From Pseudomonadota bacterium (GTDB taxonomy: Bacteria > UBA10199 > 2-02-FULL-44-16 > JAAZCA01), in contig JAZDOG010000080.1 of NCBI GenBank assembly GCA_043798915.1, positions 1-25,498 of the forward strand: DNA of 25,498 nucleotides, written 5' to 3'. Position 1 is the first letter of the stretch. Each line of letters starts with the position of its first letter. This document shows, one piece after another, positions 3,826 to 24,126 of this stretch. The position numbers and the translations under genes are program-made. A model generated the notes under the pieces. It did not search any database. It saw only the letters and a list, made by a program, of their open reading frames with translations, and was not told where the DNA came from.

Positions 3826-3826
3826 T

Positions 3827-4513: not shown

Positions 4514-4816
4514 TCACATGCCGAAGGTAAGGGCGGGGTCGTTCCGGATCCTTTCCCTCCTTTTGTTTTTTTTCGGTTTCTCGCTCTTCGTCAGGTACTT
4601 TTGCGCCTCTACGGCATAATCGGTCTCCGGGTAATACTGGACAACCTTTTGACAGTAATACCGGAGTGTGGGGTAATCCCCGACTTTCCAGAGAACTCTG
4701 ATGGTCGTCATCCACCATTCCGCCTGGACCCTGTCCACATTGCTTAACTCCTGGGCAGAGGCTTGAAAGGCCAGCATCATAAGAAAAAGAAAAAGGATTA
4801 TTTTCATTTTCTTCAT
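4514..4816 (-). CDS. Small secreted helical (TPR/BamD-like hairpin) protein at the end of the secretin operon
   Basis: Signal peptide MKKMKIILFLFLMMLAFQASA; motif VVQYYPETDYAVEAQKYL; ATGA overlap with the secretin stop. Confidence 0.6.
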   Translation of the reverse strand: MKKMKIILFLFLMMLAFQASAQELSNVDRVQAEWWMTTIRVLWKVGDYPTLRYYCQKVVQYYPETDYAVEAQKYLTKSEKPKKNKRRERIRNDPALTFGM

Positions 4817-6969
4817 TCGCGAAACCTCCGCTTCCTTTTTGTCGGGGTTTCCTCCACATCTTCCGGAGTCGTTCCGTATTCCGACGCCGGGACGTCGGAA
4901 GACTTTATTTTCTCCGGGGCCTGTTTGTAAGAAGGGAGAGTGACGCTGGCCAGAGAAGACGGGTGCGTGCCCGGAAGGGTCTCTTCGCCGGTCATGATAT
5001 GGGGAGTCAGCAAGACGACCAATTCCGAGTTTTTTACCTGGTCGTTTGTTGAACGGAACAAAAGCCCCAGCACCGGAATTCGGGAAAGAAGCGGGAGTCC
5101 CTTGTGCATCTTGACCCTGCTGCTGTTCATGAGCCCGCCGATCAACACCGTCGACCCGTCTCTGACCATGACCGTGGTCTCCGCGTTCGTGCTCTCTACG
5201 ATCGGGATCTCGTCCCCTTGAGACGTCTTCAGGAAGCGCGTGACCGAACTCACTTCCGGCTTGATCTTCATCGTGATCATGCCGTCGGAGTTGATTGTCG
5301 GAGTCACGTGCAGCGTCACCCCGACGTCGACGAAGGTGACCTGTTGAGCGGTGGTCGTGGTCGCCTGGCTTTGGGTGACGCTGGAAGTGGTGTAGGCCTC
5401 TTTGCTTCCCACCATGATCTTGGCCTCCTGGCCGTCAATTGCGGCGATCTGAGGCGTCGAGAGGATGTTGGACCTTCCAAAGGTCTCCAATAGTTTAATG
5501 ATAGCCCCGGAGCCGCTATAGGTGGTGGTTTTGTTGCCGGAGGAGTCCGTGGAGGTATGGGGGGTGATCGAGCCGCCCGTCATCTGGGCGAAATCGGTCA
5601 AGACCAGGGGGAAGGTCCCCTGAACATGCCCGCTGACCAGTCTCCCCCAATCAATTCCCGATTGAAACTGATTGTTCAAGGCAACCTGAACGATCTTGGC
5701 CTCTATGAAAACTTCGCGGGTCTTGGTGTCAAAGGCATTCACCAGCGTTCGCAGATGGTCGATGTTGCTGGGGAGATCAGAGACGACCAGCCGATTGGAT
5801 CTTTCATCCACGTAAATCTTTCCGATGTCCTTGCTGAGAGAGGGCGTCAATTTTTCTCCGACCACCGGGGCCTTTGCGTATTTGAGATCGAATATCTCGG
5901 AGGTGACGGGAGGAAGGCGGACGATGGTCGGGAGTTCCTCAGTCTGGATGATCTCCTCCATCTGCGCGATTTTATCCGGCGTATCCATAAGCACTATTGT
6001 GCCTGTCGAGTCGTTGTAGACGATACGGCCCACTGAACTTTTGATGTTTTCGAGTATCGCGCCCACGTTTTTGGGCGAAGCGTATTTCAGGTGGAGGACT
6101 TTTGTCTCGCGCTGGTCATAGAATTCCTTGCCGTAGAGCCCTTTGTATTCCTCTTCGGTCAGCACCCGCAGGATGTTTCCCTTGATCATGTAGGCCAGAC
6201 GATTTGAGGAGAGAATGATGTAGATGGCGTCCCGAATGGTGATATCGTTCAACAGAAAAGAGACGGAACCGGTAATCCCCTGGCTGGCCACCAGATTGAG
6301 GTCTGCCTTGATCGCCAGGTATTTGATGGCGTCCAGAATATCAATGCTCCGCAAGTCGAGAGAAATCTTCGTGTCGAGGAGGGAAGAAGGAAGTTCTGAA
6401 AGAGGCGTCGACGGTTGCGAAGGATCCGGCGCCGGCTGCGGGGGTTCAAGGGTGCGTCCTTCTGAAGTCAAGCCATGGGACGACGGCTGGCCGGACGAAC
6501 TCGACGAACCGGACGATTGCGGCGAAGAGGGTTTTTCCGGCGGGCTCGCCCCTGTCTGGCCGGGCTTGGAGGGTTTTTCCGGCGGGCTTGTCTCTGTCTG
6601 ACCGGGCTTGGGTGGAAGCTTGGGTTCCTCACCTAGCGCTGCCCTGACGGCCGGTTCCGCCGGTGTGGTTGACGCCGGCTCCGGCGGTTTTGCGGGGGGT
6701 GCTCCTGTCGGCGCAGCCGGTTTAGCGGGGGGCGTCCCTGTTGTTGTAGACGAAGGAGTCCCCCCGGAGGTGGCCGTTGTAGCGGGGGGTGTCCCCGTTG
6801 TTGTAGACGAAGGCGGCGCACCAGGGGGGGCTGCGCTTCCCGGAGAAATCGTCGTTGTCGTTGATGATGCAGCGGCGGCAGTCTCCGGAATCGTAAGCGC
6901 CAGGGAGGGCAAAAAGAAGAGCAGAGCGACTAATGCGGATATCATAAGCCGCTTGGCGAATAGATTCAT
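4813..6969 (-). CDS. Outer-membrane secretin (PilQ/GspD type) with long Pro/Thr/Ser-rich N-terminal extension
   Basis: Signal peptide; STN-like KISLDLRSIDILDAIK; two Secretin_N domains (LKYA motifs, DERSNRLVV); secretin core EVFIEAKIV, ILSTPQI, DVGVTLHVTP, GGL...LLSRIPVLGLLF, ELVVLLTPHI. Confidence 0.92.
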   Translation of the reverse strand: MNLFAKRLMISALVALLFFLPSLALTIPETAAAASSTTTTISPGSAAPPGAPPSSTTTGTPPATTATSGGTPSSTTTGTPPAKPAAPTGAPPAKPPEPASTTPAEPAVRAALGEEPKLPPKPGQTETSPPEKPSKPGQTGASPPEKPSSPQSSGSSSSSGQPSSHGLTSEGRTLEPPQPAPDPSQPSTPLSELPSSLLDTKISLDLRSIDILDAIKYLAIKADLNLVASQGITGSVSFLLNDITIRDAIYIILSSNRLAYMIKGNILRVLTEEEYKGLYGKEFYDQRETKVLHLKYASPKNVGAILENIKSSVGRIVYNDSTGTIVLMDTPDKIAQMEEIIQTEELPTIVRLPPVTSEIFDLKYAKAPVVGEKLTPSLSKDIGKIYVDERSNRLVVSDLPSNIDHLRTLVNAFDTKTREVFIEAKIVQVALNNQFQSGIDWGRLVSGHVQGTFPLVLTDFAQMTGGSITPHTSTDSSGNKTTTYSGSGAIIKLLETFGRSNILSTPQIAAIDGQEAKIMVGSKEAYTTSSVTQSQATTTTAQQVTFVDVGVTLHVTPTINSDGMITMKIKPEVSSVTRFLKTSQGDEIPIVESTNAETTVMVRDGSTVLIGGLMNSSRVKMHKGLPLLSRIPVLGLLFRSTNDQVKNSELVVLLTPHIMTGEETLPGTHPSSLASVTLPSYKQAPEKIKSSDVPASEYGTTPEDVEETPTKRKRRFRE

Positions 6970-6972
6970 AGG

Positions 6973-7602
6973 CTATATGAATTCCTTGGTTTGTCCGTTA
7001 TACTCCATAATCACCCGATCCTTAAGAATCTGCTTTACTAATACCCCCTTTAATTTTTGCCCTTCTTTGAGAAAAAATGTCCGCCCTTCTTTGACCTCCC
7101 GGATCATCGCCTCTGGAGCGGCGCCCCACGCGATCCCGACCAGCTTGAAATTCTCCATAACTCCAGCCATGTCTGCGTCGGCGGGCGAGGGCTTCCTGGG
7201 CGCAGCTTCCCCCGCTGTTGGTTGAAATAAGCTGCGTCTGGCGAGGGAGGCCAGAAATTCATCCACCGGAGGCAGATTGAGACTGGGGCGATCTTGAGCC
7301 GGGAGGGCCTCTGCCACCCGGCTTTGCAACAGCCCGATTTTGGGTTGAAAGAAGAAGATGTTGATCCCCGAGAGAGCTATGACCAGCACACCGCTTGCAA
7401 TCAGGGCCTTGTTCAAGCGGACCAGAACTGAAGCCGCGTCCGGTTTCGGGCCGGAGGATGCCTCCCTGCGGTGAAACATCGAGCGAAGTTCCTGGTAGAA
7501 CTTATTCAAAAAACTTCTCTCTTCCGGAAAGGGCGATTCTCCCCCATTTTGGATCACCTGGAGCAGTTTTTCTTCCGCACTCAGATCTTCCTGCTTGATC
7601 AC
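6973..7602 (-). CDS. GspC/PilP-like inner-membrane assembly protein
   Basis: One TM segment; C-terminal HR-like domain FKLVGIAWG...AMIRE...FLKEGQKL...VKQILKDRVIMEYNG; GTG start overlapping the ExeA stop. Confidence 0.7.
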   Translation of the reverse strand: MIKQEDLSAEEKLLQVIQNGGESPFPEERSFLNKFYQELRSMFHRREASSGPKPDAASVLVRLNKALIASGVLVIALSGINIFFFQPKIGLLQSRVAEALPAQDRPSLNLPPVDEFLASLARRSLFQPTAGEAAPRKPSPADADMAGVMENFKLVGIAWGAAPEAMIREVKEGRTFFLKEGQKLKGVLVKQILKDRVIMEYNGQTKEFI

Positions 7603-8477
7603 GGCTTGAGCTCCTCCCAGTCCTCGATCTCGGAGATCTTTTGGGCAACATCCAGTATTGCGCGTTCGCTAAAGACCACCTGTTGGACGATTCTCCGGTC
7701 TACCACTTCCTTGTTATCCATCACGATCCGTTCCAGCAGGTTGTGGCAGAGTGCGGTGGTTCGGCGCGGGTATCCCTCCGAGTATGAATATATCTCTTCG
7801 TAGGCATCTTCCGTGAACAGGGAAAGCTTCGCCCTATACCCTGCCTCGCGCAAACGAAACTGGATCATCTCTTTCATCTCGAATTGATTTAAGGGGTTGA
7901 GCATGTATTTGAGGGAGATTCGATCCCAGAAATTTTTGAGACCGACGATCTTCGGAAGCAGCTCCAATTGCGACATGAGCACCAGTTGCACCAGTTTGTA
8001 TTCATTCGTTTCAAAATTCAGAAGCGTCCGGAGGATTTCCAGCGAGGGGCGATCCAGCTTTTGGGCCTCGTCGATCAGGATGACGACCGTCTTTTTCTCT
8101 CTTGCGTCCAATTCAAGGAGTTTTTTCTCGATGGCGTTCAGATAGTCGGCGACGGAAAAGTTCGTCTGGCTGGCCTGGGGATGAAACAGTTCCGCCAGCT
8201 TTGCCAAAAACGCCAGCTCGGATGGGAAGGTCGGATTGAGTATGATATGAAAATCAAATCCGTTGTCTGCCGAGAGGATCTGGTAGAGTTTGCGGGAGAG
8301 AGTCGTCTTGCCCGTTCCAACATCACCCAAAATCAGGTTCAACCCCCTTTTTAACCGCAGCGAGATCATCAGCCGATAAAGCGCGGCCTTATGATCTTTA
8401 GACTTGTAGAACAGGGATGGATCGGGACTCGTCGAAAACGGTTCTCTCTCAAGCCCCAATATCCTGTAATAACTCAT
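7599..8477 (-). CDS. ExeA/GspA-family AAA ATPase (general secretion pathway protein A, short form)
   Basis: YY..LGLEREPFSTSPDP N-terminus; Walker A GDVGTGKTT; Walker B ILIDEAQ; SEGYPRR motif; no C-terminal peptidoglycan-binding domain. Confidence 0.9.
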   Translation of the reverse strand: MSYYRILGLEREPFSTSPDPSLFYKSKDHKAALYRLMISLRLKRGLNLILGDVGTGKTTLSRKLYQILSADNGFDFHIILNPTFPSELAFLAKLAELFHPQASQTNFSVADYLNAIEKKLLELDAREKKTVVILIDEAQKLDRPSLEILRTLLNFETNEYKLVQLVLMSQLELLPKIVGLKNFWDRISLKYMLNPLNQFEMKEMIQFRLREAGYRAKLSLFTEDAYEEIYSYSEGYPRRTTALCHNLLERIVMDNKEVVDRRIVQQVVFSERAILDVAQKISEIEDWEELKP

Positions 8478-11275: not shown

Positions 11276-11302
11276 GGGCCACCCGTCGCGGTGGCCCTTT
11301 TT
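11276..11302 (+). terminator. Intrinsic terminator
   Basis: GGGCCACC-cgtcgc-GGTGGCCC followed by TTTTT. Confidence 0.75.
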
Positions 11303-11373
11303 ATTGCCTCTTGCATGTCGCCGGGTCTCGGGCTATAAAGAATCGGCTCTGTCGCAATTGGGCAATATTGTAT

Positions 11374-11504
11374 ATTTATCAAACAGTTCCTTTGCTTCGC
11401 AAACAACCGTGTCTTTTGGCTGAGATATTTCACTCTTACAAAAATTGAATAAAAACTGAAAAAAGTCGAAAAAAGGGCACAACTTTTTTCGGAATCAGAC
11501 GATA
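11374..11504 (+). promoter_or_regulatory. Conserved upstream element, copy 1 (putative alternative-sigma promoter/regulatory region)
   Basis: Aligns by eye with copies at 15431 and 16194; core GGGCACAACTTTTTT-N8-GACGATA at 11475-11504. Confidence 0.75.
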
Positions 11505-11567
11505 CAGACACCAGAGGGGTGAATGTATTTTTATCTGGAGTGATCGAGGAAGGATAAGGAGGATAAA

Positions 11568-12302
11568 ATGTATTCAGGTGGAGGCGGCATAGGAATGTTG
11601 ACGGAGGATTTATGCAAGCAAAACGAAATTTGGAACAAGGAATGCCAGGACCAATTCCAAATTTTTGTAGACGCAGTTAAATTTGGATGTTCAAAAAATT
11701 TCTCAGAAGCTGCCTTTCAATCGGACTGCGTTACAGAGCATCTGTCGTTCGATCTGAACAGCAAATTTGGCGAGGAATTTTTTAAGGACACCGAAGTCAC
11801 GGAAAAAATGTGGAACCGGTTTAAAAATCTGGCTCTGGGGATCCCATGGGAAAAAACATTATCTATTTCCCCCTCTGCGCCCATCCCCGCTGCTCAACCT
11901 CCAGCAGAACCGAAAAAAATAATTCCGCCATTGGGCAAATGGAGCACTCGTCAGAAGGTGGGACTGGGCGTTGGAATCGCCGGGCTGGCCCTCATCATAG
12001 GCGGCGGCGTGTGCCTGGGCATCGGACAGACGAGATACGACGAGGCCAGGTCATTGGCGAACACGGCCGGGACTTCACCAAATTACGACGAGGCCATTCA
12101 AGCCTATCGAGCCTTCCCTGGCACCTACGATCAGGCAAAGGATCTTGCAACTGCGGGATGGGCCCTGGCTGGAGTGGGGGTCGCCGCTGCGGTTGCGGGA
12201 ATCGCCCTCGTGGTGTCCGGCAGGCGCATGCAAAGTGAAAAAACAGTCTGGCTGATAACACCATTCGCATCAGGCGGCGCTGCGGTCTACGGCACTTTTT
12301 GA
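11568..12302 (+). CDS. Cys-patterned N-terminal domain + Pro linker + two Gly-rich hydrophobic helices + Phe-terminated tail (family A, copy 1)
   Basis: AAGGAGG RBS; no signal peptide; C-terminal architecture shared with 16359..17375 (TAGWA; W..P..GG...G.F). Confidence 0.75.
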   Translation: MYSGGGGIGMLTEDLCKQNEIWNKECQDQFQIFVDAVKFGCSKNFSEAAFQSDCVTEHLSFDLNSKFGEEFFKDTEVTEKMWNRFKNLALGIPWEKTLSISPSAPIPAAQPPAEPKKIIPPLGKWSTRQKVGLGVGIAGLALIIGGGVCLGIGQTRYDEARSLANTAGTSPNYDEAIQAYRAFPGTYDQAKDLATAGWALAGVGVAAAVAGIALVVSGRRMQSEKTVWLITPFASGGAAVYGTF

Positions 12303-12326
12303 TCAGTAAACAGGAGGAGAATCACC

Positions 12327-13463
12327 ATGATCTACGCAATTGCGGCTGTGGTTGTTTTCGCGGCAAGTTGTGTGTGGGATGAAATTTCTAAACCGCCCGA
12401 ACCCCAATCCCCGCCCGACGCAAAAAAACCGGACGGCGCCGGGCAGGACGAGTGGATAATGGAAGATATGACCATCCTCGATCTGGCCGAGTCCGATCTG
12501 GCCGAGTCCGATCTGGTCATGTCCAAGATGGACATGTCCAAGATGGACATGAGCGGTGTGGACGAGTTTGTGCAACCGGCTGACATGACCATGCCGTCCG
12601 GCGATGTGTTTGTTCCGCCAGGTGATATGACCAAACCGCCACAAGGCGACATTCCGCCCGGCGATATGACAATGCCGGGTGACATGTCCCAGATGCCGCC
12701 GCCGGATCTGTCGTCCAAGGCAGACATGACGCAGTATGTGGACATGACCCCCGTGCCGCCGGATATGACTCCAGCCCCTCCTGACATGTCGATTCCCATC
12801 CCTGATAAAGCGCACTGCTGGACGATGAACAACGTGACAGGTTCGACATCCCCCGATGAATGCGGGACGGGCCAGAATAAAATCGATTCGTACCTGAAGG
12901 GCTCTGTTGCTCCAACCGTAGTCGCCGGCAAAGTTGGAAGCGCCCTGGAGTTCAAGGCGTCCTCACGACAATTCACGTGGCTGAACGGCACCGGCGTCCC
13001 GGATATAAGCACCGGGGCCTTCTCCTTTTCCCTGTGGTTCTATGTAAAGGCCCTTCCGGGAGCGGGCAAATACAGCGGGATATTTGCCCAGAACCAGCTC
13101 GGGGTAGAAAATTTTACCCTGAAGGTTCTGGATACCGGTGAAGTGGAGTTCTCGGGCCCGCTCTGTTCACAGGCGCCGCAGAAGTCATCCTCTTTAGGCC
13201 TCAATGCATGGCACAGTGCGATCGTCGTGAGGGCTCAGGGCGGGTCCACAAGGCTTTATGTAAACGGTTCTGAGACGGCAGCTCCCGGGACATGCGCGGG
13301 TTCCCTGTCCGCCACGACTGACCTCGCCACGGGGAGTGATTATCCGGGGTCGTCTGCGGGGTATAATTACTTCACAGGCATCATCGATGAGGTGAAGATG
13401 TGGCCGGCGGCGCTTTCACCGGCGCAGGTGGGCCAGGTTTATATGAACCCTGACAAATATTAA
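12327..13463 (+). CDS. Lipoprotein with Asp-Met/Leu repeat stalk and LamG-like jellyroll (Laminin_G_3) domain
   Basis: AGGAGGAG RBS; lipobox FAAS-C; many DM/DL(S/T) repeats; GKVGSALEF, FSFSLWF, WHSAIV, FTGIIDEVKMW motifs. Confidence 0.8.
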   Translation: MIYAIAAVVVFAASCVWDEISKPPEPQSPPDAKKPDGAGQDEWIMEDMTILDLAESDLAESDLVMSKMDMSKMDMSGVDEFVQPADMTMPSGDVFVPPGDMTKPPQGDIPPGDMTMPGDMSQMPPPDLSSKADMTQYVDMTPVPPDMTPAPPDMSIPIPDKAHCWTMNNVTGSTSPDECGTGQNKIDSYLKGSVAPTVVAGKVGSALEFKASSRQFTWLNGTGVPDISTGAFSFSLWFYVKALPGAGKYSGIFAQNQLGVENFTLKVLDTGEVEFSGPLCSQAPQKSSSLGLNAWHSAIVVRAQGGSTRLYVNGSETAAPGTCAGSLSATTDLATGSDYPGSSAGYNYFTGIIDEVKMWPAALSPAQVGQVYMNPDKY

Positions 13464-13476
13464 GCCAGGTCCATAA

Positions 13477-15285
13477 TTAGAAGTTGATGAGGGTCGGTTG
13501 TTTTTCCTCTATCTGCGTCCCGTCACCCAGTTCTCCGCTGCCGTTTGCCCCCCAGCAATAGAAGGCGTTGCCCTGGCTCTTTATCGCGCAGCTCTGATCT
13601 CCTCCGACGACGATGCTCGCCCATCCGCTGGGATCGGTCGGCGCGGTGGGGGATGCCTGCTGCGTCGTTGCGTTGTCTCCCAGCCTTCCGTTCGTATCGT
13701 TTCCCCAGCAGTAGATGGAGCCGTCGGTCTTTATTCCGCAGGTGTGGACATTCTTCGCCGCAATCTTGCTCCATCCGGAAGCCACGGAGAGCGCCGTGGG
13801 CGAGGTCTTCTGGTCGGTGGTTCCGTTTCCAAGGCGGCCGTTGGTGCCAGCCCCCCAGCAATAGCCGTTTCCGTTCGACTTCACGGCGCAGGTGTAACTG
13901 GAACCGGCGCTCACGTGCGCCCAATCGGAATCCGTGCCGACACGCTGCGGCGTGGTGACGCTGCCGCCGAGGGCTGGATCGCCGCATTGCCCTGAGCTGT
14001 TGTCGCCCCAGCAATACAGCGCGCCGTTTGTCCTGATAGCGCAGGTATGATTCTCACCAGAGCTCACGATCACCCACGTGGTTTCAGCGCCGATCTGGAT
14101 GGGCGTGTTCTGTGGATTGCTCCCGCCGCCGAGCTGGTTATTTGTATTGTCGCCCCAGCAAAGGAGGGTCCCGTCTGTCTTGATGCCGCAGGTGTGCTGG
14201 TAGCCGGTCGAAACGAACGAATAGCCGCTGCCCGTAAGCACGGGGGTATCGTTTTCATTTGGCGCGTCCGTGCCCAGTTCACCGTCCGCGTTATATCCCC
14301 AGCAATAGAGGTCGCCGTTCGTCCTGATGGCGCAGGCATGCGCGTCGCCGGCAGACACGCTCGACCAGCTGGCGCCGGTGACCAGGCGCGGGGTCTTCTG
14401 CGGCGTCACCGTATCCCCCCTGCCCACCTGGCCGACGTCGTTTTTGCCCCAGCAATACAGCGTGCCGTCGGATTTGATCCCGCAGGTGAACACCGTTCCG
14501 CCGGTTACCTTTGAAGCGTCCGCCGTGACTCCCGTCGTCGTGAACGTCCAGGTGTAGTTGCTGGAGAATATGGCGTAGCCGTTTGAATCCTTGATCCCGG
14601 TCTTGAGCGCGGCAGTGTAGGTTGTGAGATAGCCGAGCACGCTTGTCGGCGTGAATGTGAGCGTCTTTGTCGCGGAGCTGTATGAGGTCGTCCCGGCTAT
14701 TGCCGTGCCGTTCCCGTCGGCCAGGGTCATATTTCCGTCGAACGAGGATTCCGTCATTGCAGAGGAGAAGACCACGCTCACTGTCGTATTCAGGGCGACT
14801 GCCGTGGCGCTGAGGGCCGGCGACACTGACGCGGGATCTGCTGCGCCGGTGGTTAAGCTCCAGGCATGATTGGCGGAGAGGGCCGTGCCGCCCGCATCCT
14901 TCACGCCTGTCGTGATCGTCGCCGTGTGCACGGTGTTTGTCGCTAACACATTTTGTGGTGTGAATGTGGCGGCGTGCGTGGAGGAGTCGTACGACACCGC
15001 CCCCGTCACAGAGGTCCCGTTGGCGTCGGCAAGAGTGAATGTGCTCGTCGTGAGGGTTGTCTCATCGGCCGCTGCTGAAAACGTGGCCGTCACGGCGCCG
15101 CCCACAGGGACCGCAGTGGCATCCGACGCCGGAGAGGTCGATGAGACGGAGAAGGTCGAAGAGGTGCTGCCGCTGGAGGAGCCGCCGCTGCTGCCTCCGC
15201 CTCCGCCGCAGGAGGGCAAAAGAGCCAAGCTCAAAACCAGGCCCAACAGAGCAAACAGCGCAAGCGTCTTTTCGAAGAACCTCAT
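13477..15285 (-). CDS. Lipoprotein with two Ig-like (Big_5/SbsA-type) domains and a 7-bladed RCC1 beta-propeller
   Basis: Start placed at ATG 15285 with GGAGGT RBS; lipobox LLPS-C + Gly/Ser linker; TFTP...L...T.YT Ig motifs twice; seven C-W-G RCC1 repeats. Confidence 0.88.
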   Translation of the reverse strand: MRFFEKTLALFALLGLVLSLALLPSCGGGGGSSGGSSSGSTSSTFSVSSTSPASDATAVPVGGAVTATFSAAADETTLTTSTFTLADANGTSVTGAVSYDSSTHAATFTPQNVLATNTVHTATITTGVKDAGGTALSANHAWSLTTGAADPASVSPALSATAVALNTTVSVVFSSAMTESSFDGNMTLADGNGTAIAGTTSYSSATKTLTFTPTSVLGYLTTYTAALKTGIKDSNGYAIFSSNYTWTFTTTGVTADASKVTGGTVFTCGIKSDGTLYCWGKNDVGQVGRGDTVTPQKTPRLVTGASWSSVSAGDAHACAIRTNGDLYCWGYNADGELGTDAPNENDTPVLTGSGYSFVSTGYQHTCGIKTDGTLLCWGDNTNNQLGGGSNPQNTPIQIGAETTWVIVSSGENHTCAIRTNGALYCWGDNSSGQCGDPALGGSVTTPQRVGTDSDWAHVSAGSSYTCAVKSNGNGYCWGAGTNGRLGNGTTDQKTSPTALSVASGWSKIAAKNVHTCGIKTDGSIYCWGNDTNGRLGDNATTQQASPTAPTDPSGWASIVVGGDQSCAIKSQGNAFYCWGANGSGELGDGTQIEEKQPTLINF

Positions 15286-15430
15286 CGCAAACCTCCCTGG
15301 TTGATGTGCCAGGACTCCTAGCATAATGCATAGAGGTAGTAAAGGGCGCTGTGGCAGGCAGGACATATGTTTACGGACTTCTTCACGTTGCGGCGTTTCT
15401 TCAGTGTTCGTATAGCTGATAAACCTCTCT

Positions 15431-15551
15431 ATTTATCAAGCAGTTCCTTCAAAAATCGAATAAAACCCGGATAAACCAAAAAAAGGGCACAACTTTTTTG
15501 AGGATCGGACGATAATAATATAGCAAAGGCGTAAAGGTTTCGGAGGGATGT
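15431..15551 (+). promoter_or_regulatory. Conserved upstream element, copy 2 (46-bp internal deletion)
   Basis: TTATCAA.CAGTTCCTT joined directly to CAAAAAT.GAATAAAA; core at 15485-15514. Confidence 0.75.
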
Positions 15552-16106
15552 ATGGGAAAGATCGAGAAATATATCAGGCTGCAGCTGTGCCGCAACGAGA
15601 CAAAGGCAGAGGACGATTCATCCTCCGTTGTGGCAGATGACGTGGCAAACGACGTCACATGTGTAAAATTTTTCAGACAATTTCGTGCCTACATCAGGGA
15701 GAACTGCAAGAAATTCGAAACTGCGCAAAACGAAAAGAAAACATTCGACGATGAAGATCAGAGGAAAATGCATTTGGATGAGAATATCGCCCAGTGTGTC
15801 CGCGACGCCTTTGTCAGCGGTGACTCGGAGGAGAGCAAGACAAAATGGGAAAATTTATTGGACAGCATGCTGGGTAAGAACACACAATTATATTGTGCCA
15901 CCAGGGTTTTAAGGAACTTGTCCATGCAGGAAGTTCCAAATTGGCAAAGGGAAGCGGGAAAGGTGGCAAAGAGCGAGCCCGCATGTGAAAAGCTTTTGCC
16001 AAGGCAGAAAAAAAGCAAACATCCTGTTGAGAACACCCCTGTCCCTGCAGGCGCGCCCGCCCCGGACAGGGCGACAACGCCGGACAAACCACCCAGGCGC
16101 CGGTAG
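15552..16106 (+). CDS. Family A copy 2: Cys-patterned domain only, no membrane hairpin
   Basis: Close paralog of the N-terminal half of 16359..17375 (MGKIE.YIRLQLCR; TCVKFF.QFR.YIRENC; KWENLL; QLYCA.RVLRNLSMQ); ends in a Pro-rich tail. Confidence 0.75.
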   Translation: MGKIEKYIRLQLCRNETKAEDDSSSVVADDVANDVTCVKFFRQFRAYIRENCKKFETAQNEKKTFDDEDQRKMHLDENIAQCVRDAFVSGDSEESKTKWENLLDSMLGKNTQLYCATRVLRNLSMQEVPNWQREAGKVAKSEPACEKLLPRQKKSKHPVENTPVPAGAPAPDRATTPDKPPRRR

Positions 16107-16193
16107 CGGAGAGGGGTTTTTGCTCCTTGCGCGGTTCCATGCCTTGGGCTATTTAAGATGTCATCGCTCTCATAGCTGAGAAATATCAGCTGG

Positions 16194-16358
16194 TTATCAA
16201 TCAGTTCCCTTGTTTTGCAAACAACCGTGTTTTTTGGCTTAGATATTTCACTTTTACAAAAATTGAATAAAAACCGAAAAAACTGAAAAAAGGGCACAAC
16301 TTTTTTTGGAGGCGGACGATAACAATACAGCAAAGGCGCAAAGATTCAGGAGAGGTGT
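16194..16358 (+). promoter_or_regulatory. Conserved upstream element, copy 3
   Basis: Full-length like copy 1; core at 16292-16321; leader down to the ATG similar to copy 2. Confidence 0.75.
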
Positions 16359-17375
16359 ATGGGGAAAATCGAAGGATACATAAGGCTGCAGCTGTGCCGC
16401 AGCGATATAAAAACGGCGAATGGTTTGTCTCCCGATGAGACGCTCGACGATACATGTGTAAAATTTTTCAAACAATTTCGCGGGTACATCAGGGAGAACT
16501 GCAGGAGATACGAAACCAGACGGAGTGAGAAGGCGATATTCGAAGATGAGAGTCTGAGGAAAGTGTTTTTGGATGAAAATATTTTCCAGTGCACCCGCGA
16601 CGCCTTTGTCAGCGATGACTCAGAGGAGAGCGCGGCGAAATGGGAAAATTTATTGGAAAGCATCCGGGATAAAAATATACAATTATATTGTGCTGCCAGG
16701 GTTTTGAGGAACTTGTCCATGCAGGACCCGCAGGATCAGAAAGACCCCCCAAACTGGGAAAAGGAAGCAAAAAAGCTGGAGAAAACCAGGCGCAAGTGCA
16801 AAAATTTTTTGGAAAATCAGCAGACGAGCGAAGCTCCCGCTGAGAGCAGACCGCCCGTTGCCAGCAGGCTTCCTGCCGGATCCAAACTCGACGAAAACGG
16901 CGGGCTGTTGCCGCCTGAATCCTATGAACGCAAGCCCGAATCTCCCGAACCGAAACAGGCGGACAAGCCGAAACAGGCGGACAACACGGTGAAGTGGGCC
17001 GGGGTGGGGGTGCTCGGCACAGGTCTGGTAGCCGGAGTTGTCGGCGCAGTTCTTTTGGTCCTGGCGTCATCGAATCATGACAAAGCGGCAAACCTTGCCG
17101 CCGACATGGGGGGCTTGTCCGGCGATGACTATGATGATAAAAAGACGCAGTTTCTGAACGCATATTCAAGCTACCAGAGCGAAAACACCGCGGGATGGGC
17201 GATGCTCGGTCTCGGCGCGGCAGCGCTCGCCACAGGGCTGGGCCTCTTTCTGTGGAAGACGCTCCGCAAGGACGATGGCGCGAAAAAAGATGAGGCGGAC
17301 CCGAATGCTGCGAAAAGAGCCGCCCTCTGGGTTGCGCCTTCGCTGGGCGGGCTTTCATTTGGCGGCGAGTTTTGA
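16359..17375 (+). CDS. Family A copy 3: Cys-patterned domain + Pro linker + two Gly-rich hydrophobic helices + Phe-terminated tail
   Basis: AGGAGAGG RBS; no signal peptide; ends ALWVAPSLGGLSFGGEF. Confidence 0.78.
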   Translation: MGKIEGYIRLQLCRSDIKTANGLSPDETLDDTCVKFFKQFRGYIRENCRRYETRRSEKAIFEDESLRKVFLDENIFQCTRDAFVSDDSEESAAKWENLLESIRDKNIQLYCAARVLRNLSMQDPQDQKDPPNWEKEAKKLEKTRRKCKNFLENQQTSEAPAESRPPVASRLPAGSKLDENGGLLPPESYERKPESPEPKQADKPKQADNTVKWAGVGVLGTGLVAGVVGAVLLVLASSNHDKAANLAADMGGLSGDDYDDKKTQFLNAYSSYQSENTAGWAMLGLGAAALATGLGLFLWKTLRKDDGAKKDEADPNAAKRAALWVAPSLGGLSFGGEF

Positions 17376-17403
17376 TAGGGATACATCAAGGATATAAGGA
17401 TAT

Positions 17404-18504
17404 ATGGCGATGATCAAAATCAACATCTGCGATCCGCGCGGCGATTACAGGCAGGAGATACAGGAAAAACATGCCGAGGCCGTCATTGGAGAGGCGGAGA
17501 GGCGTATCGCCGACGACCAGTCGCGCCGCGAAGAGATGGGATCGGGCTTTTTCATCTCCCCGCCTGATCGCAAGGATTTAATATATCTCCCGCTCCTTCT
17601 CAGTCCCCTTGGGCTGATTGGGCTGTTCGGGCTGGGGCTCGGCGGATGCGATGATATCAAGTTCCCAGCCCCCGCCGACCTCAGCGGGGCGGAAATGGGA
17701 GATATGTCCGGGAAGCCGGATATTAAGATGCTCGTGGATCAGGAGCCAGGCGATCTCTCCTCCTTGGATATGGGCGACGACATGACGCAGGGCGACGACA
17801 TATGCTGCGGGCCCGACCTCACCCAGCCGGAGCCGGACATGTCGGCGCAGCAGGATATTGCCCAGCCGCCCCTGCCGGATCTGGCCTCTGCGGACCTTTC
17901 GACGCCGCTGAAAAATGTCCTCCAGCTCCATTTCGATGAGGGTATCGGTTCTGCAACCAGGGACAGCAGCGGGATCGGCAACGATGGACAGCTCTCCGAT
18001 CCTCTTGCGCAGTGGGGCGCGGGCAAAATCGGGAAGGCGGTATACTTCAGCGGCGCGGACAACACCCAGAACGCGAAGGTCGGCATAACCAAACCGATAG
18101 GCCTGGGTTCCAATGCATTTACAATATCTTTCGACGTCTATCTGAATTCATTGGGAACGAAACAGACGGTCGCAATATATCTTGATGCGCAAAAGAACGA
18201 GGCGTTCAAGATATACGCGAAAGCCGATGGCACCCTGGCGTTCCATACCCCGGCGTGCAGCGATGCCGCCGTGACCCAAGCGAACCAGGCCCTGAAAACG
18301 GCGCAATGGTATTCCGTCAAAATCCAGCATGACGGAGGACAGCCAAGAATGTCTATAGACGGGAATGTCGCAGATTCCAGCGCGTGTGCCCTCAATATTC
18401 CGGATGGAGGCACGCTGATTTTTGGCGTCGAAACGCTGGTTGGAGGAAAAGATACGCTGAATGGCGGCGTGGACGAATGGGAAATCTGGCAGGGGTTGAA
18501 ATAA
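17404..18504 (+). CDS. Lipoprotein-like protein with Asp-Met/Leu repeat stalk and LamG-like domain (paralog of 12327..13463)
   Basis: Hydrophobic stretch + LGGC at Cys82; DLS/DMS/DMT repeats; LHFDEG.G..T.DSSG.GNDG, GKIGKAVYF, LNGGVDEWEIW motifs. Confidence 0.8.
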   Translation: MAMIKINICDPRGDYRQEIQEKHAEAVIGEAERRIADDQSRREEMGSGFFISPPDRKDLIYLPLLLSPLGLIGLFGLGLGGCDDIKFPAPADLSGAEMGDMSGKPDIKMLVDQEPGDLSSLDMGDDMTQGDDICCGPDLTQPEPDMSAQQDIAQPPLPDLASADLSTPLKNVLQLHFDEGIGSATRDSSGIGNDGQLSDPLAQWGAGKIGKAVYFSGADNTQNAKVGITKPIGLGSNAFTISFDVYLNSLGTKQTVAIYLDAQKNEAFKIYAKADGTLAFHTPACSDAAVTQANQALKTAQWYSVKIQHDGGQPRMSIDGNVADSSACALNIPDGGTLIFGVETLVGGKDTLNGGVDEWEIWQGLK

Positions 18505-18524
18505 TTTCCCCAAAGGGGCTGTCT

Positions 18525-20261
18525 ATGTATTCCAAAAAGCTGATAGTCATCGCATTCTCTTTGCTGATGCTGGCAAGCTGCGGCAGCGAAGGGGTAAGCG
18601 TCGATGCTGGAGAAGGCAACGTCACGCTGCCCCCCTCGACGTCGACAGCCGTTGCAGCGCCGACAGTCGCTTCCACAAAACTTGTGTTTCTCGACGGCAC
18701 CACAAAAGTGGATGCGTCGCTGACGCCGAGCCGTCCGATTCCGTTGAGCGCGGCCGTCGAAGTGGTGTTCTCGAAAGACATGAACGACCGGTCGTTTGTC
18801 GATGGCGTAGCCAGGCTCGTCTACGTGGCCGAAGGAACTGAAAAGACCGTGGCGGGTGCGGCGACATGGAGCGACAAAAGGACGCTGGTCTTCACCCCTC
18901 AATATCACAGGCTGAAGGCCGGGACCGCCTGCACCTTTGAGATCACGACGGCCGCAGAATCTGAGGATGAAGCCAAACTTGCAACCGCCTTCAGCCAGCA
19001 ATTCAAGACCATGACAGCCGGCGACGTCGACGGAGACGAGCATGCGGACGTCGTCGTCGGCGCGCCAAACGTCGGCGGCTCGGCAGGCAGGGCATATGTT
19101 TACAGCGGCAAAGACCTGACCGGCACGTTTGTTGCTGCATTGGCAGGAAGCAATAACAATGAACTGGTTGGCTATTCCGCAGCGGTGGGCGATGTGAATG
19201 GAGACGGTTATGCCGACGTCGTCATCGGAGCGCCGGGAGTTGGTGGAAAGGGCGCGGTCTATATTATAAACGGCGCCACCGGCGCCGCGGACTGGACGCT
19301 TACTGGCGAAGCGGCGGGCGGCCATCAGTTTGGCTATTCCGTGGCCGTGGGTGACGTAGACGGAGACGGAAAAGAAGATGTCATAGTCGGAGATAACATA
19401 TTCGATGACGGAGCTCTGACGGGCGCAGGCAAAGTATACGTATACAGCGGCGAGAGCCTCTCGGGCGCCGCGATTGCTGCGATAACAGGCGTGGCGGCCG
19501 GCGATAAAACAGGCAGCTCGGTTGCCGCCGGGGATATGGACGGCGACGGGCATTACGAAGTTGCAGCGGGCGCCCCCCTTCTGAATTCCCAAGCGGGCGC
19601 TGTATATGTGTTCAGCGGTGTAAAACTTGATTCCAATCTGTATACCAGCGATGCAGCGGGCGCTGTCGGCTGGACGCTTGCGGGGCCGGCTGCAAATACC
19701 CGCTTTGGGTGGGCATTATCAATGGGGGACATGGATGGTGACGGAAAGGCGGATTTGGCAGTCGGAGCACCACGGTGGAACAGCTATTTGGGCAAGGTTT
19801 ATATCTATAATGATAGCGGGTTGAACAGCGGAACCACAATTGCGACAGTGACAGGCACGCAGGCCGCAGGCAAATTTGGCAGTTCGGTTGCGGCTGTTGC
19901 GGATGCCGACGATGATGGAAGATCTGAGCTGGTGGTTGGAGCGCCAGGCGCGGATAAGGCATATTTTATGTATGGAAAACTTTTGACCGCCGACATAGAC
20001 GCTTCGCAGATAGCCGGCAGCATAGGCACGGGCTGGGTGGTGGCCGGCGGCGGTTCAGATTCATGCGGTTCCGCTGTCTCGGGAGGGGATGTCACCGCCG
20101 ATGGAACGGTCGAGTTTATTGTCGGCTGTCCGGCCTACAATGCCATGGGGGAAACGGTCATCTATAGCATCGCCGACGGCTACGATATCAACAACGGATC
20201 GCTGGTGAACCCCGCGGGGGCCAACGACATGTTTGGAACATCTGTGTCGGGGGGGAATTAA
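18525..20261 (+). CDS. Lipoprotein with Ig-like (Big_5-type) domain and seven FG-GAP / integrin-alpha repeats
   Basis: Start placed at ATG 18525 (MYSKKLIVIAFSLLMLAS-C); VVFSKDM...LVFTP Ig motif; seven GD.[DN]GD...D..VGAP-type repeats with FG.SV segments. Confidence 0.88.
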   Translation: MYSKKLIVIAFSLLMLASCGSEGVSVDAGEGNVTLPPSTSTAVAAPTVASTKLVFLDGTTKVDASLTPSRPIPLSAAVEVVFSKDMNDRSFVDGVARLVYVAEGTEKTVAGAATWSDKRTLVFTPQYHRLKAGTACTFEITTAAESEDEAKLATAFSQQFKTMTAGDVDGDEHADVVVGAPNVGGSAGRAYVYSGKDLTGTFVAALAGSNNNELVGYSAAVGDVNGDGYADVVIGAPGVGGKGAVYIINGATGAADWTLTGEAAGGHQFGYSVAVGDVDGDGKEDVIVGDNIFDDGALTGAGKVYVYSGESLSGAAIAAITGVAAGDKTGSSVAAGDMDGDGHYEVAAGAPLLNSQAGAVYVFSGVKLDSNLYTSDAAGAVGWTLAGPAANTRFGWALSMGDMDGDGKADLAVGAPRWNSYLGKVYIYNDSGLNSGTTIATVTGTQAAGKFGSSVAAVADADDDGRSELVVGAPGADKAYFMYGKLLTADIDASQIAGSIGTGWVVAGGGSDSCGSAVSGGDVTADGTVEFIVGCPAYNAMGETVIYSIADGYDINNGSLVNPAGANDMFGTSVSGGN

Positions 20262-20291: not shown

Positions 20292-20324
20292 ATAAAACGG
20301 GATCCCTTCAGGATCCCGTTTTAT
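20292..20324. terminator. Bidirectional intrinsic terminator
   Basis: Perfect 14-bp inverted repeat ATAAAACGGGATCC-cttca-GGATCCCGTTTTAT. Confidence 0.8.
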
Positions 20325-20436
20325 TATTAAAATCAAGGGCGGTAGCCTCTGGGTCTTTTGGAAATTGAATAAGCGGCCTGTTGTGTTTTTCAACAGGGAT
20401 GTTAAACTTTGCCCCGAATTGACAGGGAGGTGGAAA

Positions 20437-21504
20437 ATGAAGAGAGGACGCATTGTATTCTGCGCCGTGGTTGCGGTCGCGGCTGGAGTCCTGCCTGCGG
20501 GATTTGCGCGCGCGCAGCAACCGCAGCCAGCAGTGCAGCCGTATGCGCCGCCGGTGGCGCTGCAGCCGCAGGCTCAAGCGCCGCAGCCCCTGCCAGCTCA
20601 ACTGGCCCAGCCGCAACCTTATGCACAGCCTGCAGCGCCAGTTCAACCGGCCAGGCCGCAGCCTTATGCACAGCCTGCAGCGCCAGTTCAACCGGCCCAG
20701 CCGCAACCTTATGCACAGCCTGCAGCGCCAGCTCAGCCGGCCCAGCCGCAGCCTTATGCACAGCCTGCAGCGCCAGCTCAACCGGCCCAGCCGCAACCTT
20801 ATGCACAGCCTGCTCCGGCGCCTTACGTACAGCAGCCTGTTCCGGCGCAGCTTGCGCCGCCCATGCAGTTTCAAGCGATTCCGGCGGCTCCGGCTCCGAC
20901 ACCAGCTCCAGCTCCTTCGCTCCCGGCTGTCCAGCCGGCCGCGCCAGCTGCTCCGGCGCCAGCCCCGCAGCCGGCGCCAGTTAAGCCGGCACCGGTGCAA
21001 AAACATGCGGCGCCACCGGTTCAAAAGCCAGCGCCGGCGCCCGCAGCTGTCAGTCCGGCGCCAGCAACACCACCGGCTGCAGCGCCGCAGGCCCAGCCGC
21101 CGAAACCACAACCTCCAACCACGCAGCCGCCACCAGCTGCTGCAGCGGCAGCACCCGAGGCCCCGAAGCCGCCGGTCAAAAAGAAACGCGTTTCTCGCCT
21201 TCCGCCGGTTACAGGGACAACTGCGGATGGCAAGAAATCCGATCTCCCGGCTGGATGGGAGGGCCCGGATAAGCTCCCGCCTGGCGCGGTCCGACTCGAA
21301 GATCTGAAGCCGGCCTATGGTGCGGGCGCATACAAACCCAAGGCGTCCCTGCCCAAAAAGCCCAGCGCAGCCGCTATGCCGGCGACTCCTGCTCCGCCCC
21401 CGGCGCCTGCGACGACTCCTCCGCCGAAACCCGAGAAGGATGTCATGGAGACAACGGGAGGGGGAGAGAAACCGTTGGTCCCGCCGTCGAGATGGGGCCA
21501 ATAG
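20437..21504 (+). CDS. Secreted Pro/Ala/Gln-rich low-complexity protein
   Basis: GGGAGG RBS before ATG 20437; signal peptide MKRGRIVFCAVVAVAAGVLPAGFARA; tandem AQPQPYAQPAAP(V/A)QP repeats. Confidence 0.75.
   Translation: MKRGRIVFCAVVAVAAGVLPAGFARAQQPQPAVQPYAPPVALQPQAQAPQPLPAQLAQPQPYAQPAAPVQPARPQPYAQPAAPVQPAQPQPYAQPAAPAQPAQPQPYAQPAAPAQPAQPQPYAQPAPAPYVQQPVPAQLAPPMQFQAIPAAPAPTPAPAPSLPAVQPAAPAAPAPAPQPAPVKPAPVQKHAAPPVQKPAPAPAAVSPAPATPPAAAPQAQPPKPQPPTTQPPPAAAAAAPEAPKPPVKKKRVSRLPPVTGTTADGKKSDLPAGWEGPDKLPPGAVRLEDLKPAYGAGAYKPKASLPKKPSAAAMPATPAPPPAPATTPPPKPEKDVMETTGGGEKPLVPPSRWGQ
20594..20813 (+). repeat. 45-bp coding tandem repeat, about 5 units
   Basis: CCTTATGCACAGCCTGC recurs at 20617, 20662, 20707, 20752 and 20797. 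Confidence 0.9.
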
Positions 21505-21559: not shown

Positions 21560-21647
<88 letters not shown>

Positions 21648-21654
21648 AAGAGAA

Positions 21655-24126
21655 ATGAGACGGGGCGAAAGGATGATGTTCGGGCGCAAGAGGGAAAAAA
21701 AGAGATTCTTCAAGAAGAGCAGGACGGAGAAGAACGTCGGCCGTTTCTTCCGCCTCCGTCGTCTCTGGCGGATAGCCAAGTGGCTCGCCGTGGCGGCCGT
21801 CCTCGCCTTCCTCGCCCTCTCGTATCACTTCCGGAGCCTCGACCGCATGATCGAGGCGAAATTCGACCGGCCGCGCAAGTGGGACCTCCCGTCGCGCGTC
21901 TATTCGGACGCCGAATACATATATCCCGGCGTCGATGTAAAGGCGCGGGAAATAGTCGCCAAGCTCGACCGGCTGGGCTACCGCAACACGGGCGAGACGA
22001 TCTCCGGGCCCGGCGATTACTCGGTGGGCGCAGGCAGGCTCGACATCCATCTGCACGACTTTGACTACCCCGACGAAAAGTTCAACGGCTTCGCGGTGAG
22101 GTTCTCGCTCGATGGCAGCGCCGTGAAGAACATCACGGCCCTCAAGAGCGGCGAGCAGATGGAACTCATGCACCTGGAGCCGGAGGAGATATCGTCGATA
22201 TTCAACGAGGCGATGGAGGACAGGACCATCGTGAACCTCACGCAGATCCCCGAGCGCCTGATCGAGGCGATCATCCTCATCGAGGACGACAGATTCTTCC
22301 AGCACGGCGGGATTGATCCGCTGGGAATCGCGCGCGCCGCGGTGGTCAACATAATGTCGATGCGCGTGGTCCAGGGCGGATCGACGCTCACGCAGCAGCT
22401 GGTGAAAAACTTCTTCCTCTATCCCAAGCGGTCGTTCGTCAGAAAGATCAACGAGATGCTGATCGCCTACAGGATCGAGAAGAACCACACCAAGGCGCAG
22501 ATCCTCGAGGCCTATTTGAACGAGATATACCTCGGCCAGCGCGGCGCGTCATCCGTTTCGGGAGTCGAGGAGGCGAGCCGCCTCTATTTTGCGAAGGACG
22601 CGGGGCAGATTTCACTCGCCGAATCGGCGCTTCTGGCCGGCATGATCCGGTCGCCAAACGAATACAACCCGATCACGAAGCCGGACAAGGCGAAGGCCAG
22701 GCGCGATTTCGTGCTCAAGCGCATGCTGGAGAAGGGGCTGGTGCCGAAGGATGAATACGCCGCCGCGGTCGCCGAAAAGATAGTCACGCCCAAGCCCAAG
22801 ATGCGCGTCTCCACGGCCCCGTTCTTCATCGACTTCGTGAAGCGGCAGATCGCCGACCTCTATCCACAGGAGGTCTTGCAGACCGAGGGCCTGCGCATCT
22901 TCACCTAGCTCGATATGTTCTCCCAGATCGCCGCCGAGCGCGCGGTCTCCGAGGAGCTCGCGCTCCTTGAGAAGAACAACGCCAAGCTCCTGCCCAAGGA
23001 CCACCCGGGGCCGCTGGAGGCCTGCCTTGTGGCGATCCAGCCCTCAACCGGATATGTGCGCGCGCTGGTCGGCGGCCGCAGCTACGCGTCGAGCCAGTTC
23101 GACCGCTGCACGCAGGCTGCGCGCCAGCCGGGTTCGACCTTCAAGCCGTTCGTCTATCTGACAGCACTCGATCCCAGGCGTTCGAGCAGGCCCTTCACTC
23201 CAGCGTCGATCATCGACGACACGAGCTTCGAGATCGAGGCCGGCGGCAAGATGTGGAGCCCGAAGAACTACGAGAAGAACGAGCACGGCCCGGTGACGCT
23301 CTCGACCGCGCTCGAGCAGAGCATGAACATAGCGACGGCGAGGCTCGCGATCGAGGCGGGCCTCGAGAACGTGGTCAAGACCGCGCGAGACGCCGGGATC
23401 ACGAGCCCGCTCGATGCGGTGCCGTCGCTCGCTCTCGGCGCGTTTGAGGTGAGGCCGATGGAGATGGCCGCCGCCTACACGATATTTCCGAACGGCGGCA
23501 TACGGGCTGAGCCGCTCGCGATCATCAACGTGGTCACGAAGGAGGGCGAGATCCTCCAGAAGAAGTCGCTCCAGATGAAGAGGGCGTTCGACGCCGCTCC
23601 GGTCTACATCGCGACGACGATGCTCAAGGGCGTCATCGACCGCGGCACGGGCGCTGGCGCGCGCAGCCTGGGGTTCACCGCCACCGCGGCAGGCAAGACC
23701 GGCACGACATCCAACTACCGCGATGCATGGTTCTCGGGCTTCACGCCGTCGCTCCTCGCCCTCGCGTGGGTCGGCTACGACGACAACGCGGAGATAAAGA
23801 TGAGCGGCGCGAGGGCCGCCCTGCCGATCTGGGCTCACTTCATGAAGGAAGCGGCACCCTCCGGCGGCGGGGATTTCTCTGGTCCTTCCGGAGTGATTCT
23901 GGTAAAGATCGACCCCCGAACAGGGGGCCTCGCCGGCGGTTCTTGCCCCGGCGGTATCACCGAGGCCTTCATGGAGGGGACGGAACCAAGGCAGACATGC
24001 GACGAGATATCTATTCATCCTGCAGACCCCATCAGAACGCTGACGCTCACTGCGCCGAAGACGGCGGCCGCGCCGGAGGCCGTGCCAAAGGCAGCGCCCG
24101 AAAATTCGAAGCCGGGCGATTTCTGA
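21655..24126 (+). pseudogene. mrcB: Penicillin-binding protein 1B (TM + UB2H + GT51 transglycosylase + transpeptidase) interrupted by one in-frame TAG at 22906-22908
   Basis: ORFs 21655..22908 and 22915..24126 share a frame; EDDRF, GGSTLTQQLVKN, RKINE; GLRIFT*LD; SxxK QPGSTFKP, SMN, KTGT. Confidence 0.85.

Follow-up and report, generated by a model that had tools for sequence, protein, structure and literature searches.

A repeated block of envelope-protein genes in a UBA10199 bacterium is a local paralogous expansion, probably under sigma-28-type promoters

A 25,498-nucleotide (nt) stretch of DNA from a bacterium of the phylum UBA10199 (contig JAZDOG010000080.1 of assembly GCA_043798915.1; this whole stretch is called the window below) contains a block, at positions 11,374 to 20,261, in which a non-coding element recurs upstream of three related genes, A1, A2 and A3, and in which two of these genes are followed by genes for probable lipoproteins with a Laminin_G_3 domain (LamG1 and LamG2). 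The original prediction for this DNA had read the block as a co-regulated, diversifying cell-surface recognition or display system built from a repeated cassette. Our analysis suggests, with a probability of roughly 0.6, that the block comprises three paralogous transcription units formed by local duplication (A1-LamG1, A2 alone and A3-LamG2-FG-GAP), and that the 3' third of the element upstream of each unit is a two-box promoter of the sigma-28 (FliA/WhiG) type, belonging to a class of 62 sites in the genome. The repeat is real, and a single regulator very probably governs all its copies. The layout is a paralogous expansion confined to one genome and forms part of a genome-wide regulon; it is not a new system of wide occurrence. 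What is new is that the core of the element is a member of a sigma-28-type promoter class that is kept across the phylum.

The assembly analysed is 2.34 Mb in 105 contigs and 97% complete, and its contigs are cited below by C-numbers (C20, C57 and so on). A gene map made from the open reading frames (ORFs) of the window and from Pfam scans contained every feature described in the original prediction, where that prediction had placed it. The features of the block are as follows.

11276..11305, + strand: intrinsic terminator at the left block boundary, closing the upstream gene; stem 11276-11297 (GGGCCACC/GGTGGCCC), then TTTTTATT
11376..11567, + strand: element copy 1, from its 89% match to copy 3 and its promoter score
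11568..12302, + strand: A1, an ORF of 244 residues
12327..13463, + strand: LamG1, an ORF with Laminin_G_3
13477..15366, - strand: gene for a probable lipoprotein with two Big_5 domains and an RCC1 beta-propeller, from ORF and Pfam; convergent on LamG1
15431..15551, + strand: element copy 2, a short form, from its match to copy 3 and its promoter score
15552..16106, + strand: A2, an ORF of 184 residues
16186..16358, + strand: element copy 3, the search query, also with a promoter score
16359..17375, + strand: A3, an ORF of 338 residues
17404..18504, + strand: LamG2, an ORF with Laminin_G_3
18525..20261, + strand: gene for a probable lipoprotein with Big_5 and an FG-GAP beta-propeller, from ORF and Pfam
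20297..20331, + strand: intrinsic terminator at the right block boundary; stem 20300-20321 (CGGGATCC/GGATCCCG), then TTTTATTATT

When element copy 3 was searched against the whole assembly, it returned itself and two further copies, all in this contig, confirming the conserved upstream element that had been predicted: copy 1 matched at 11376-11504 (89% over 128 nt, E 2e-42) and copy 2 at 15450-15551 (83% over 102 nt, E 8e-23), and each of the three remaining matches had an E value of 0.19 or more. About 46 nt common to copies 1 and 3 are missing from copy 2. Invariant in all three copies are the blocks GGGCACAACTTTTTT and GACGATA, which stand at a fixed spacing with variable bases between them. 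In copies 1, 2 and 3, respectively, the -35-like 5-mer ACAAC lies at 11479-11483 (with a T-tract), 15489-15493 and 16296-16300, and the -10-like box at 11498-11505 (GACGATAC), 15508-15515 (GACGATAA) and 16315-16322 (GACGATAA), so that transcription would start near 11513, 15523 and 16330; copy 3 has a 29-nt leader with AGGAGAGG. Ahead of the -35 box in copies 1 and 3 are three A-tracts, phased at about 10-11 nt, and some 60 further conserved bases (11376-11479 in copy 1, including its three phased A-tracts); this DNA is probably bent or serves as the binding site of an activator. Copies 1 and 3 are no longer alike beyond the -10 box, the 5' leader of copy 1 not being conserved with that of copy 3, and Rfam at E <= 1 gave no match in the block and matched the tRNA region alone, indicating that the element acts as DNA and not as RNA.

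The core of the element recurs throughout the genome. A motif found by a pattern search of the genome, consisting of an A/T-rich run, CACGCAACTTTTTT, about 10 nt and GCCGATAA, was turned into a 40-nt weight matrix, which was applied at a threshold of 18 bits with the reversed genome as a control; 62 sites reached the threshold in the genome and none did so in the reversed genome. Element copies 1, 2 and 3 scored 37.9, 44.6 and 39.9 bits, respectively, and still scored 31.5, 38.8 and 33.6 bits when the matrix was rebuilt without the window's contig, a model on which no site in the rest of the window exceeded 8.0 bits. Thirty-six of the 62 sites lie no more than 300 nt upstream of a same-strand proxy gene, as against 3.8 expected at random positions, and only 16 fall inside proxy genes, where 52 would be expected. 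The spacing between the boxes is identical in 39 of 47 seed matches, and the distance from the 5-mer to the -10 box is 14 nt in all three element copies. A strict form of the pattern, CGCAACTTT-N13-CGATA, is present in 83 of 93 genomes of the phylum, for which the reversed pattern gave four matches in total. An A/T inverted repeat is a general feature of the class. A scan with the sigma-70 consensus found 5 sites where 5.0 were expected, none of them in the elements.

In E. coli, the sigma-28 consensus is TAAAGTTT-N11-GCCGATAA. The -10 consensus of the class is likewise GCCGATAA, which is the sigma-28 -10 consensus given in PMC12784957, and in the Pseudomonas aeruginosa fliC promoter shown there a -35 5-mer stands 14 nt upstream of the same box. 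The class-3 flagellar promoters of sigma-28 (FliA/SigD/WhiG), as described in that source, are thus matched in the -10 box (GCCGATAA in the class, GACGATAA in copies of the element), in the 14-nt spacing and in the T-run after the 5-mer. They differ in that the -35 5-mer is GCAAC or ACAAC here, that the downstream genes examined are non-flagellar and that the genome yielded neither a flagellin nor a rod protein.

For the sites outside the window, 37 of the 55 first downstream ORFs have no Pfam family at E <= 1e-4, and none of the 55 has a flagellar Pfam family; the remaining ones include four FGE-sulfatase paralogues, two PilZ proteins, two subtilases, TSP3-repeat proteins and an S13 peptidase. 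The four paralogous FGE-sulfatase-domain proteins each stand behind a class site (C102:7251-8117, C92:18832-19707, C20:626-1255 and C71:23757-24629), and further example sites are at C33:17899 and C83:12401. Many ORFs of the regulon start with M-x-[AG]-[AG]-G-[ED] followed by cysteines, which may be a genuine N-terminal motif or may be spurious, reflecting starts called so far upstream that they include a GGAGG ribosome site. One class site (C103:8765-8804) falls within dnaG; the Sigma70_r2 match of a 602-codon frame presumed to be rpoD is about 2.4 kb downstream of it, and the site recalls the internal rpoD promoters of other bacteria.

The genome encodes rpoN and four sigma-70-family factors, of which one is RpoH-like, one is of the ECF type, one has FliA_WhiG as its best NCBIfam family and one, on C103 downstream of dnaG, is presumably RpoD. 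The FliA/WhiG-like gene is the sole one in this genome, and such a gene is present in 91 of the 93 phylum genomes. As in sigma-28 flagellar systems, it lies (C20:63338-64264, - strand) inside a flagellar-type cluster (C20:55682-67995), flanked on one side by a YscJ/FliF-family gene and on the other by FliG-, FliH- and FliI-like genes, FliP being 4 kb beyond; FlhA (C42) and FlhB (C13) are encoded apart from the cluster, each standing alone. Searches for flagellin (PF00669) and for the rod/hook N-terminal motif (PF00460) gave no matches in this 97%-complete genome. The promoter class, including the three element promoters, would most likely be read by this single FliA/WhiG-like sigma factor. Directly after the sigma gene is a 164-residue ORF without a Pfam family, which could encode an anti-sigma factor.

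Pfam assigned no family to A1, A2 or A3, NCBIfam assigned none to A1, and the hairpin of A1 and A3 is covered by no Pfam or NCBIfam model. A1 has an N-domain with four cysteines, a Pro-rich linker, hydrophobic helices at about residues 130-155 and 193-219 and a tail ending in YGTF; A3 has a cysteine-containing helical N-domain, a Pro/Lys-rich linker with perfect short in-frame tandem repeats, hairpin helices at about 211-229 and 279-299 and a tail ending in GGEF. An AlphaFold2 model of A1, computed without an alignment, had a mean predicted local distance difference test (pLDDT) score of 57, with an antiparallel helical hairpin at 127-217 (about 80) and an N-domain below 50, and both A1 and A3 are predicted to be membrane proteins with a long helical hairpin. 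None of the three proteins has a hydrophobic N-terminus or signal peptide, and the ORFs of A1 and A3 cannot be extended upstream. Because, in the translations, basic residues flank the hairpin and its loop (about 45 residues) is acidic, the N-domain and tail would be cytoplasmic and the loop periplasmic.

A1 and A3 match each other in the C-terminal two-helix hairpin only (33% over about 105 residues, E 1e-7), their N-domains sharing just a weak motif (E 0.076). A2, by contrast with A3, lacks the hairpin and is a paralogue of the A3 N-domain only, with 59% identity over residues 1-174. A codon analysis of A2 and A3 over 171 codons (57% amino-acid identity) gave a ratio of non-synonymous to synonymous substitution (dN/dS) of 0.35 with a dS of 0.81, indicating purifying selection. 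A2 has also retained each of the six cysteines present in the A3 N-domain, and it probably functions as a soluble paralogue instead of being a dead fragment.

The Laminin_G_3 domains of LamG1 (65.5 bits) and LamG2 (54.0 bits) both score above the Pfam gathering cut-off for this family (PF13385; 27.6 bits), and the two proteins are 28% identical over 267 residues (E 1e-13). Each joins the domain to a D-[ML]-[ST] linker, which in LamG1 contains perfect short in-frame tandem repeats of the kind typical of fast-changing spacers. LamG1 is preceded by an AGGAGG ribosome site and starts 24 nt after A1; in its translation, the lipobox-like FAAS-C is non-canonical and lacks a basic N-region. LamG2 has a canonical lipobox, LGG-C, at residue 82, which forms part of an ordinary lipoprotein signal only if the start is Met45 (17536) and otherwise follows an 80-residue N-terminus. 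The translation of the FG-GAP protein has a canonical lipobox (MLAS-C), and the RCC1 protein has LPS-C, with its likely start at Met28 (15285). The LamG and FG-GAP proteins thus appear to be lipoproteins that carry lectin- or adhesin-like domains, on disordered D-M-S/T linkers, and they may be exposed at the surface. The top-scoring class site in the genome (48 bits; C57:31880) precedes a third probable lipoprotein of this repeat type (C57:31971-33446), which has D-M-S/T and P-D-M/L repeats at both ends and no LamG domain.

Genes within a unit are closely spaced: the gaps between A1 and LamG1, between A3 and LamG2 and between LamG2 and the FG-GAP gene are 24, 28 and 20 nt, respectively, and no terminator-like sites were listed in them. 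The two terminators that were said to bound the block are both readable directly in the sequence. The statement that the same gene order occurs twice holds for A-LamG and needs qualifying for the third gene, which is convergent in unit 1 and non-homologous between the units. The RCC1 and FG-GAP proteins gave no significant alignment (best E 2.5), so the third cassette position is analogous and not homologous; because the RCC1 gene of unit 1 is convergent and, in the matrix scan of the window, is not preceded by the promoter class, the three-gene order forms an operon in unit 3 only.

We also assessed whether the parts of the block occur elsewhere. Against 5.8 billion protein clusters, A3 found itself alone, A1 found one TPR protein (E 1.2e-4) and LamG1 had one match (E 4.6e-4). 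A HMMER pass with A3 over 1.84 billion representatives returned 17 proteins at E <= 1e-3, namely A3, A2 (with an internal start) and 15 weak matches (E 1.3e-8 to 9.6e-4) that aligned from A3 residue ~81-208 on, covering the linker, hairpin and tail only. A3 had no matches in 60 related genomes, and a profile of the A1 and A3 hairpins gave two weak matches (8.8e-5 and 4.2e-4) in the 92 other genomes of the phylum. No full-length relatives of A1, A2 or A3 were found among the representatives, the clusters or these 92 genomes, no further paralogue was found when the A domains were searched against all ORFs of the genome, and look-ups in a protein atlas gave nothing beyond sub-threshold or unnamed leads. 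Two exact-pattern scans found no element in metagenome contigs. At 79 loci of distant LamG relatives, mostly in archaea, Poribacteria and candidate phyla, there were no hairpin proteins and no D-[ML]-[ST]-repeat proteins.

The nearest described likeness of the A proteins is an unnamed TPR/PEGA hairpin-tail family (P0003-P0017 and P0019), with whose members the hairpin, loop and tail of A1 and A3 align; shared features are the Gly/Ala-rich helices, a Trp/Tyr ahead of the second helix and a GG-x4-G-x-F pattern at the C-terminus. Unlike the A proteins, the members of this family have a signal peptide, and 8 of 15 have TPR and/or PEGA domains (E <= 0.01), whereas A1-A3 have no signal peptide and, by Pfam, neither of these domains; the A N-domain, in turn, has no relative except A2. 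The lipoproteins are like other Laminin_G_3, FG-GAP and RCC1 lipoproteins with Big_5 in that their domains score above the curated cut-offs. They differ in that the nearest LamG relatives are only 22-37% identical and occur in unrelated contexts (archaea, Poribacteria, candidate phyla), and in that, compared with the 79 LamG-relative loci, D-[ML]-[ST] linkers were seen in this genome only.

The flanks of the block, on the left DUF520, GIY-YIG and SEC-C genes and on the right a Pro-rich protein gene, tRNA-Ser and PBP1A, are each syntenic in relatives of the same family, in which the two flanks are not adjacent and lie on different contigs or replicons; no A or LamG homologues stand beside either flank in these relatives. 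The block sits at a synteny break, as an insertion or expansion specific to this lineage, and the duplication behind the cassette is not recent. The idea of a recurring system did not hold up: the full-length A family, the element and the pairing of A with D-M-repeat LamG proteins were found in no other genome or metagenome searched, which largely agrees with the one-off duplication that the original prediction had named as speaking against it. Other parts of that prediction fared better. Co-regulation is supported by the same two-box promoter in all three copies, also on the contig-free model, and the identities bear out that A and LamG are highly diverged while the element is conserved. The proposed diversification agrees with the 28-33% identities and the perfect in-frame repeats, although A2 and A3 are under purifying and not positive selection; the cell-surface assignment is plausible from the readable lipoboxes of the FG-GAP, RCC1 and LamG2 proteins, that of LamG1 being non-canonical.

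Several observations weigh against three duplicated units under sigma-28-type promoters. The assignment of the promoters was made from sequence alone. Sixteen of the 62 sites lie inside proxy genes. The -10 boxes of the three copies (GACGATAC, GACGATAA and GACGATAA) fit 6-7 of the 8 consensus positions, with A for the consensus C. The -35 5-mer (GCAAC for the class, ACAAC for the element copies) is not the TAAAG of characterised sigma-28 promoters, and the -35 regions (GCAACTTT in the class, ACAACTTT in the copies) share with TAAAG(TTT) just AA and the T-run. The FliA/WhiG-like sigma factor scores 130 bits against TIGR02479 (FliA_WhiG), below the NCBI cut-off of 189.6. The distant relatives of the hairpin bear Sec signal peptides, which fits poorly with a cytoplasmic A N-domain. 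Finally, copies 1 and 3 are 89% alike and copies 2 and 3 only 79-83%, though A2 is far closer to A3 than A1 is. At the dS of 0.81 that already separates A2 from A3, neutral decay could not have preserved an identity of 89% between copies 1 and 3; simple duplication and divergence are therefore insufficient, and either gene conversion or strong constraint together with a deletion in copy 2 is needed.

Other readings of the element were weighed against a sigma-28-type promoter. The 62-site motif might be read by the primary sigma or another factor together with a bound regulator, its likeness to sigma-28 promoters being coincidental; the -35 5-mer that differs from TAAAG, the GATAAT inside the -10 box, which resembles TATAAT, and the site inside dnaG upstream of rpoD would all suit this. 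However, 17 nt upstream of GATAAT the sites read CGCAAC, unlike TTGACA, the downstream genes are mostly orphans and not housekeeping genes, and the extended GCCGATAA box with its 14-nt spacing is the sigma-28 signature described in PMC12784957, so we consider this explanation improbable. A structured RNA (riboswitch, leader or small RNA) or a mobile-element remnant would account for an element that is better conserved than the adjacent coding sequence and for the 7-9-nt A/T inverted repeat that flanks GGCACAA. This is very improbable, given that Rfam had no match up to E = 1 in the block, that the transcribed leader is not conserved past the -10 box of copies 1 and 3, that the inverted repeat is general to the promoter class and that there are three copies only, all directly upstream of paralogous genes, with none in metagenome contigs. 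A sigma-54 promoter (GGCAC-N5-TTTT) with an upstream enhancer is suggested by GGGCAC, which resembles a -24 box, by the presence of rpoN and by the A-rich bent region and upstream conserved DNA, which resemble enhancer architecture. Yet the 26 genome matches to TGGCAC-N5-TTGC are nearly all TGGCACG-N4-TTGC followed by T/A, and the same bases of the element fit the 62-member two-box class at fixed spacing. The copies read GGGCAC-N5-TTTT, with TTTT where the GC of the -12 box is expected; this candidate was rejected and retains hardly any probability.

A different proposal, which is compatible with sigma-28-type promoters and adds a claim about binding, is two-partner display, in which each A protein binds its own LamG protein through the periplasmic loop or the N-domain and anchors or presents it, so that the pairs co-diversify. 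A adjoins LamG twice, at 24 and 28 nt, and both pairs have diverged to about 30% identity; on the other hand, these are just two instances in one genome, A2 has no partner, none of the 79 distant LamG-relative loci has a hairpin or D-M-repeat protein, and the D-M-repeat lipoprotein gene on C57 is a lone gene that follows a promoter of the same type and is not accompanied by an A gene. We regard such pairing as possible and rather unlikely. More speculative, and doubtful in our view, is a picture in which the phylum keeps a flagellum-derived type III export apparatus (FliF/G/H/I/P, FlhA and FlhB) without a filament, and in which the FliA-like sigma factor would be the master switch of a secretion-coupled programme of about 60 promoters. 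Many of the products, A1-A3 included, would then be clients of the apparatus, and the cassette would supply secreted membrane-inserting proteins together with Sec-exported adhesin-like lipoproteins for contact with another cell. On crude inspection, the products of the regulon are mostly orphans and often have no signal peptide. With its two hydrophobic helices, the A hairpin resembles type III translocators and chlamydial Inc proteins, in which such helices are paired.

Some features of the window lie outside the block. To its right, a secreted Pro/Gln-rich protein is encoded at 20365-21504, in a gene where a 45-nt unit recurs 4.9 times (20592-20813; 92% identity); this gene, tRNA-Ser(TGA) at 21560-21647 and PBP1A form the block that is syntenic in the family relatives. 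An in-frame TAG at 22906-22908 divides the class A penicillin-binding protein between two ORFs of the same frame, one for the transglycosylase (21655-22908) and one for the transpeptidase (22915-24126). In all 12 family relatives, the protein is in one open frame of about 470-850 codons, the shorter ones being cut by contig ends, and the TAG could be a sequencing error, a pseudogene mutation or a read-through codon. To the left, on the - strand at 4813-8477, a small operon related to secretion encodes a secretin (Secretin and Secretin_N), a weak T2SSC-like protein and an AAA_22 ATPase; it adjoins a histidine kinase and OmpR-type regulator pair at 2620-4498.

The closest described counterpart of the regulon is the attack-phase regulon of Bdellovibrio bacteriovorus, in which, as reported in PMC3627812, a FliA-type motif (TTAAG-N16-CCGATA) is present at 92 of 140 attack-phase promoters and has spread to many non-flagellar genes, including those for surface proteins, proteases and uncharacterised proteins. 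The 62 sites described here similarly stand ahead of mostly orphans, subtilases and lipoproteins. Bdellovibrio differs in being flagellated and in having its transcription starts mapped experimentally (PMC3627812), whereas the present sites are known from their sequence only and no flagellin was found.

Taken alone, the cassette is of modest interest, as an expansion of orphan envelope genes confined to one lineage. The broader lead is a sharply defined promoter class across a little-studied phylum, linked to a flagellar-type secretion cluster and driving mostly uncharacterised proteins. If confirmed, it would be a second case, after Bdellovibrio, of a flagellar sigma factor acting as a global regulator, and one that may be fully uncoupled from motility; the motif would then provide a computational handle with which the surface and secretion proteins that are co-regulated in uncultured members of the phylum could be catalogued.

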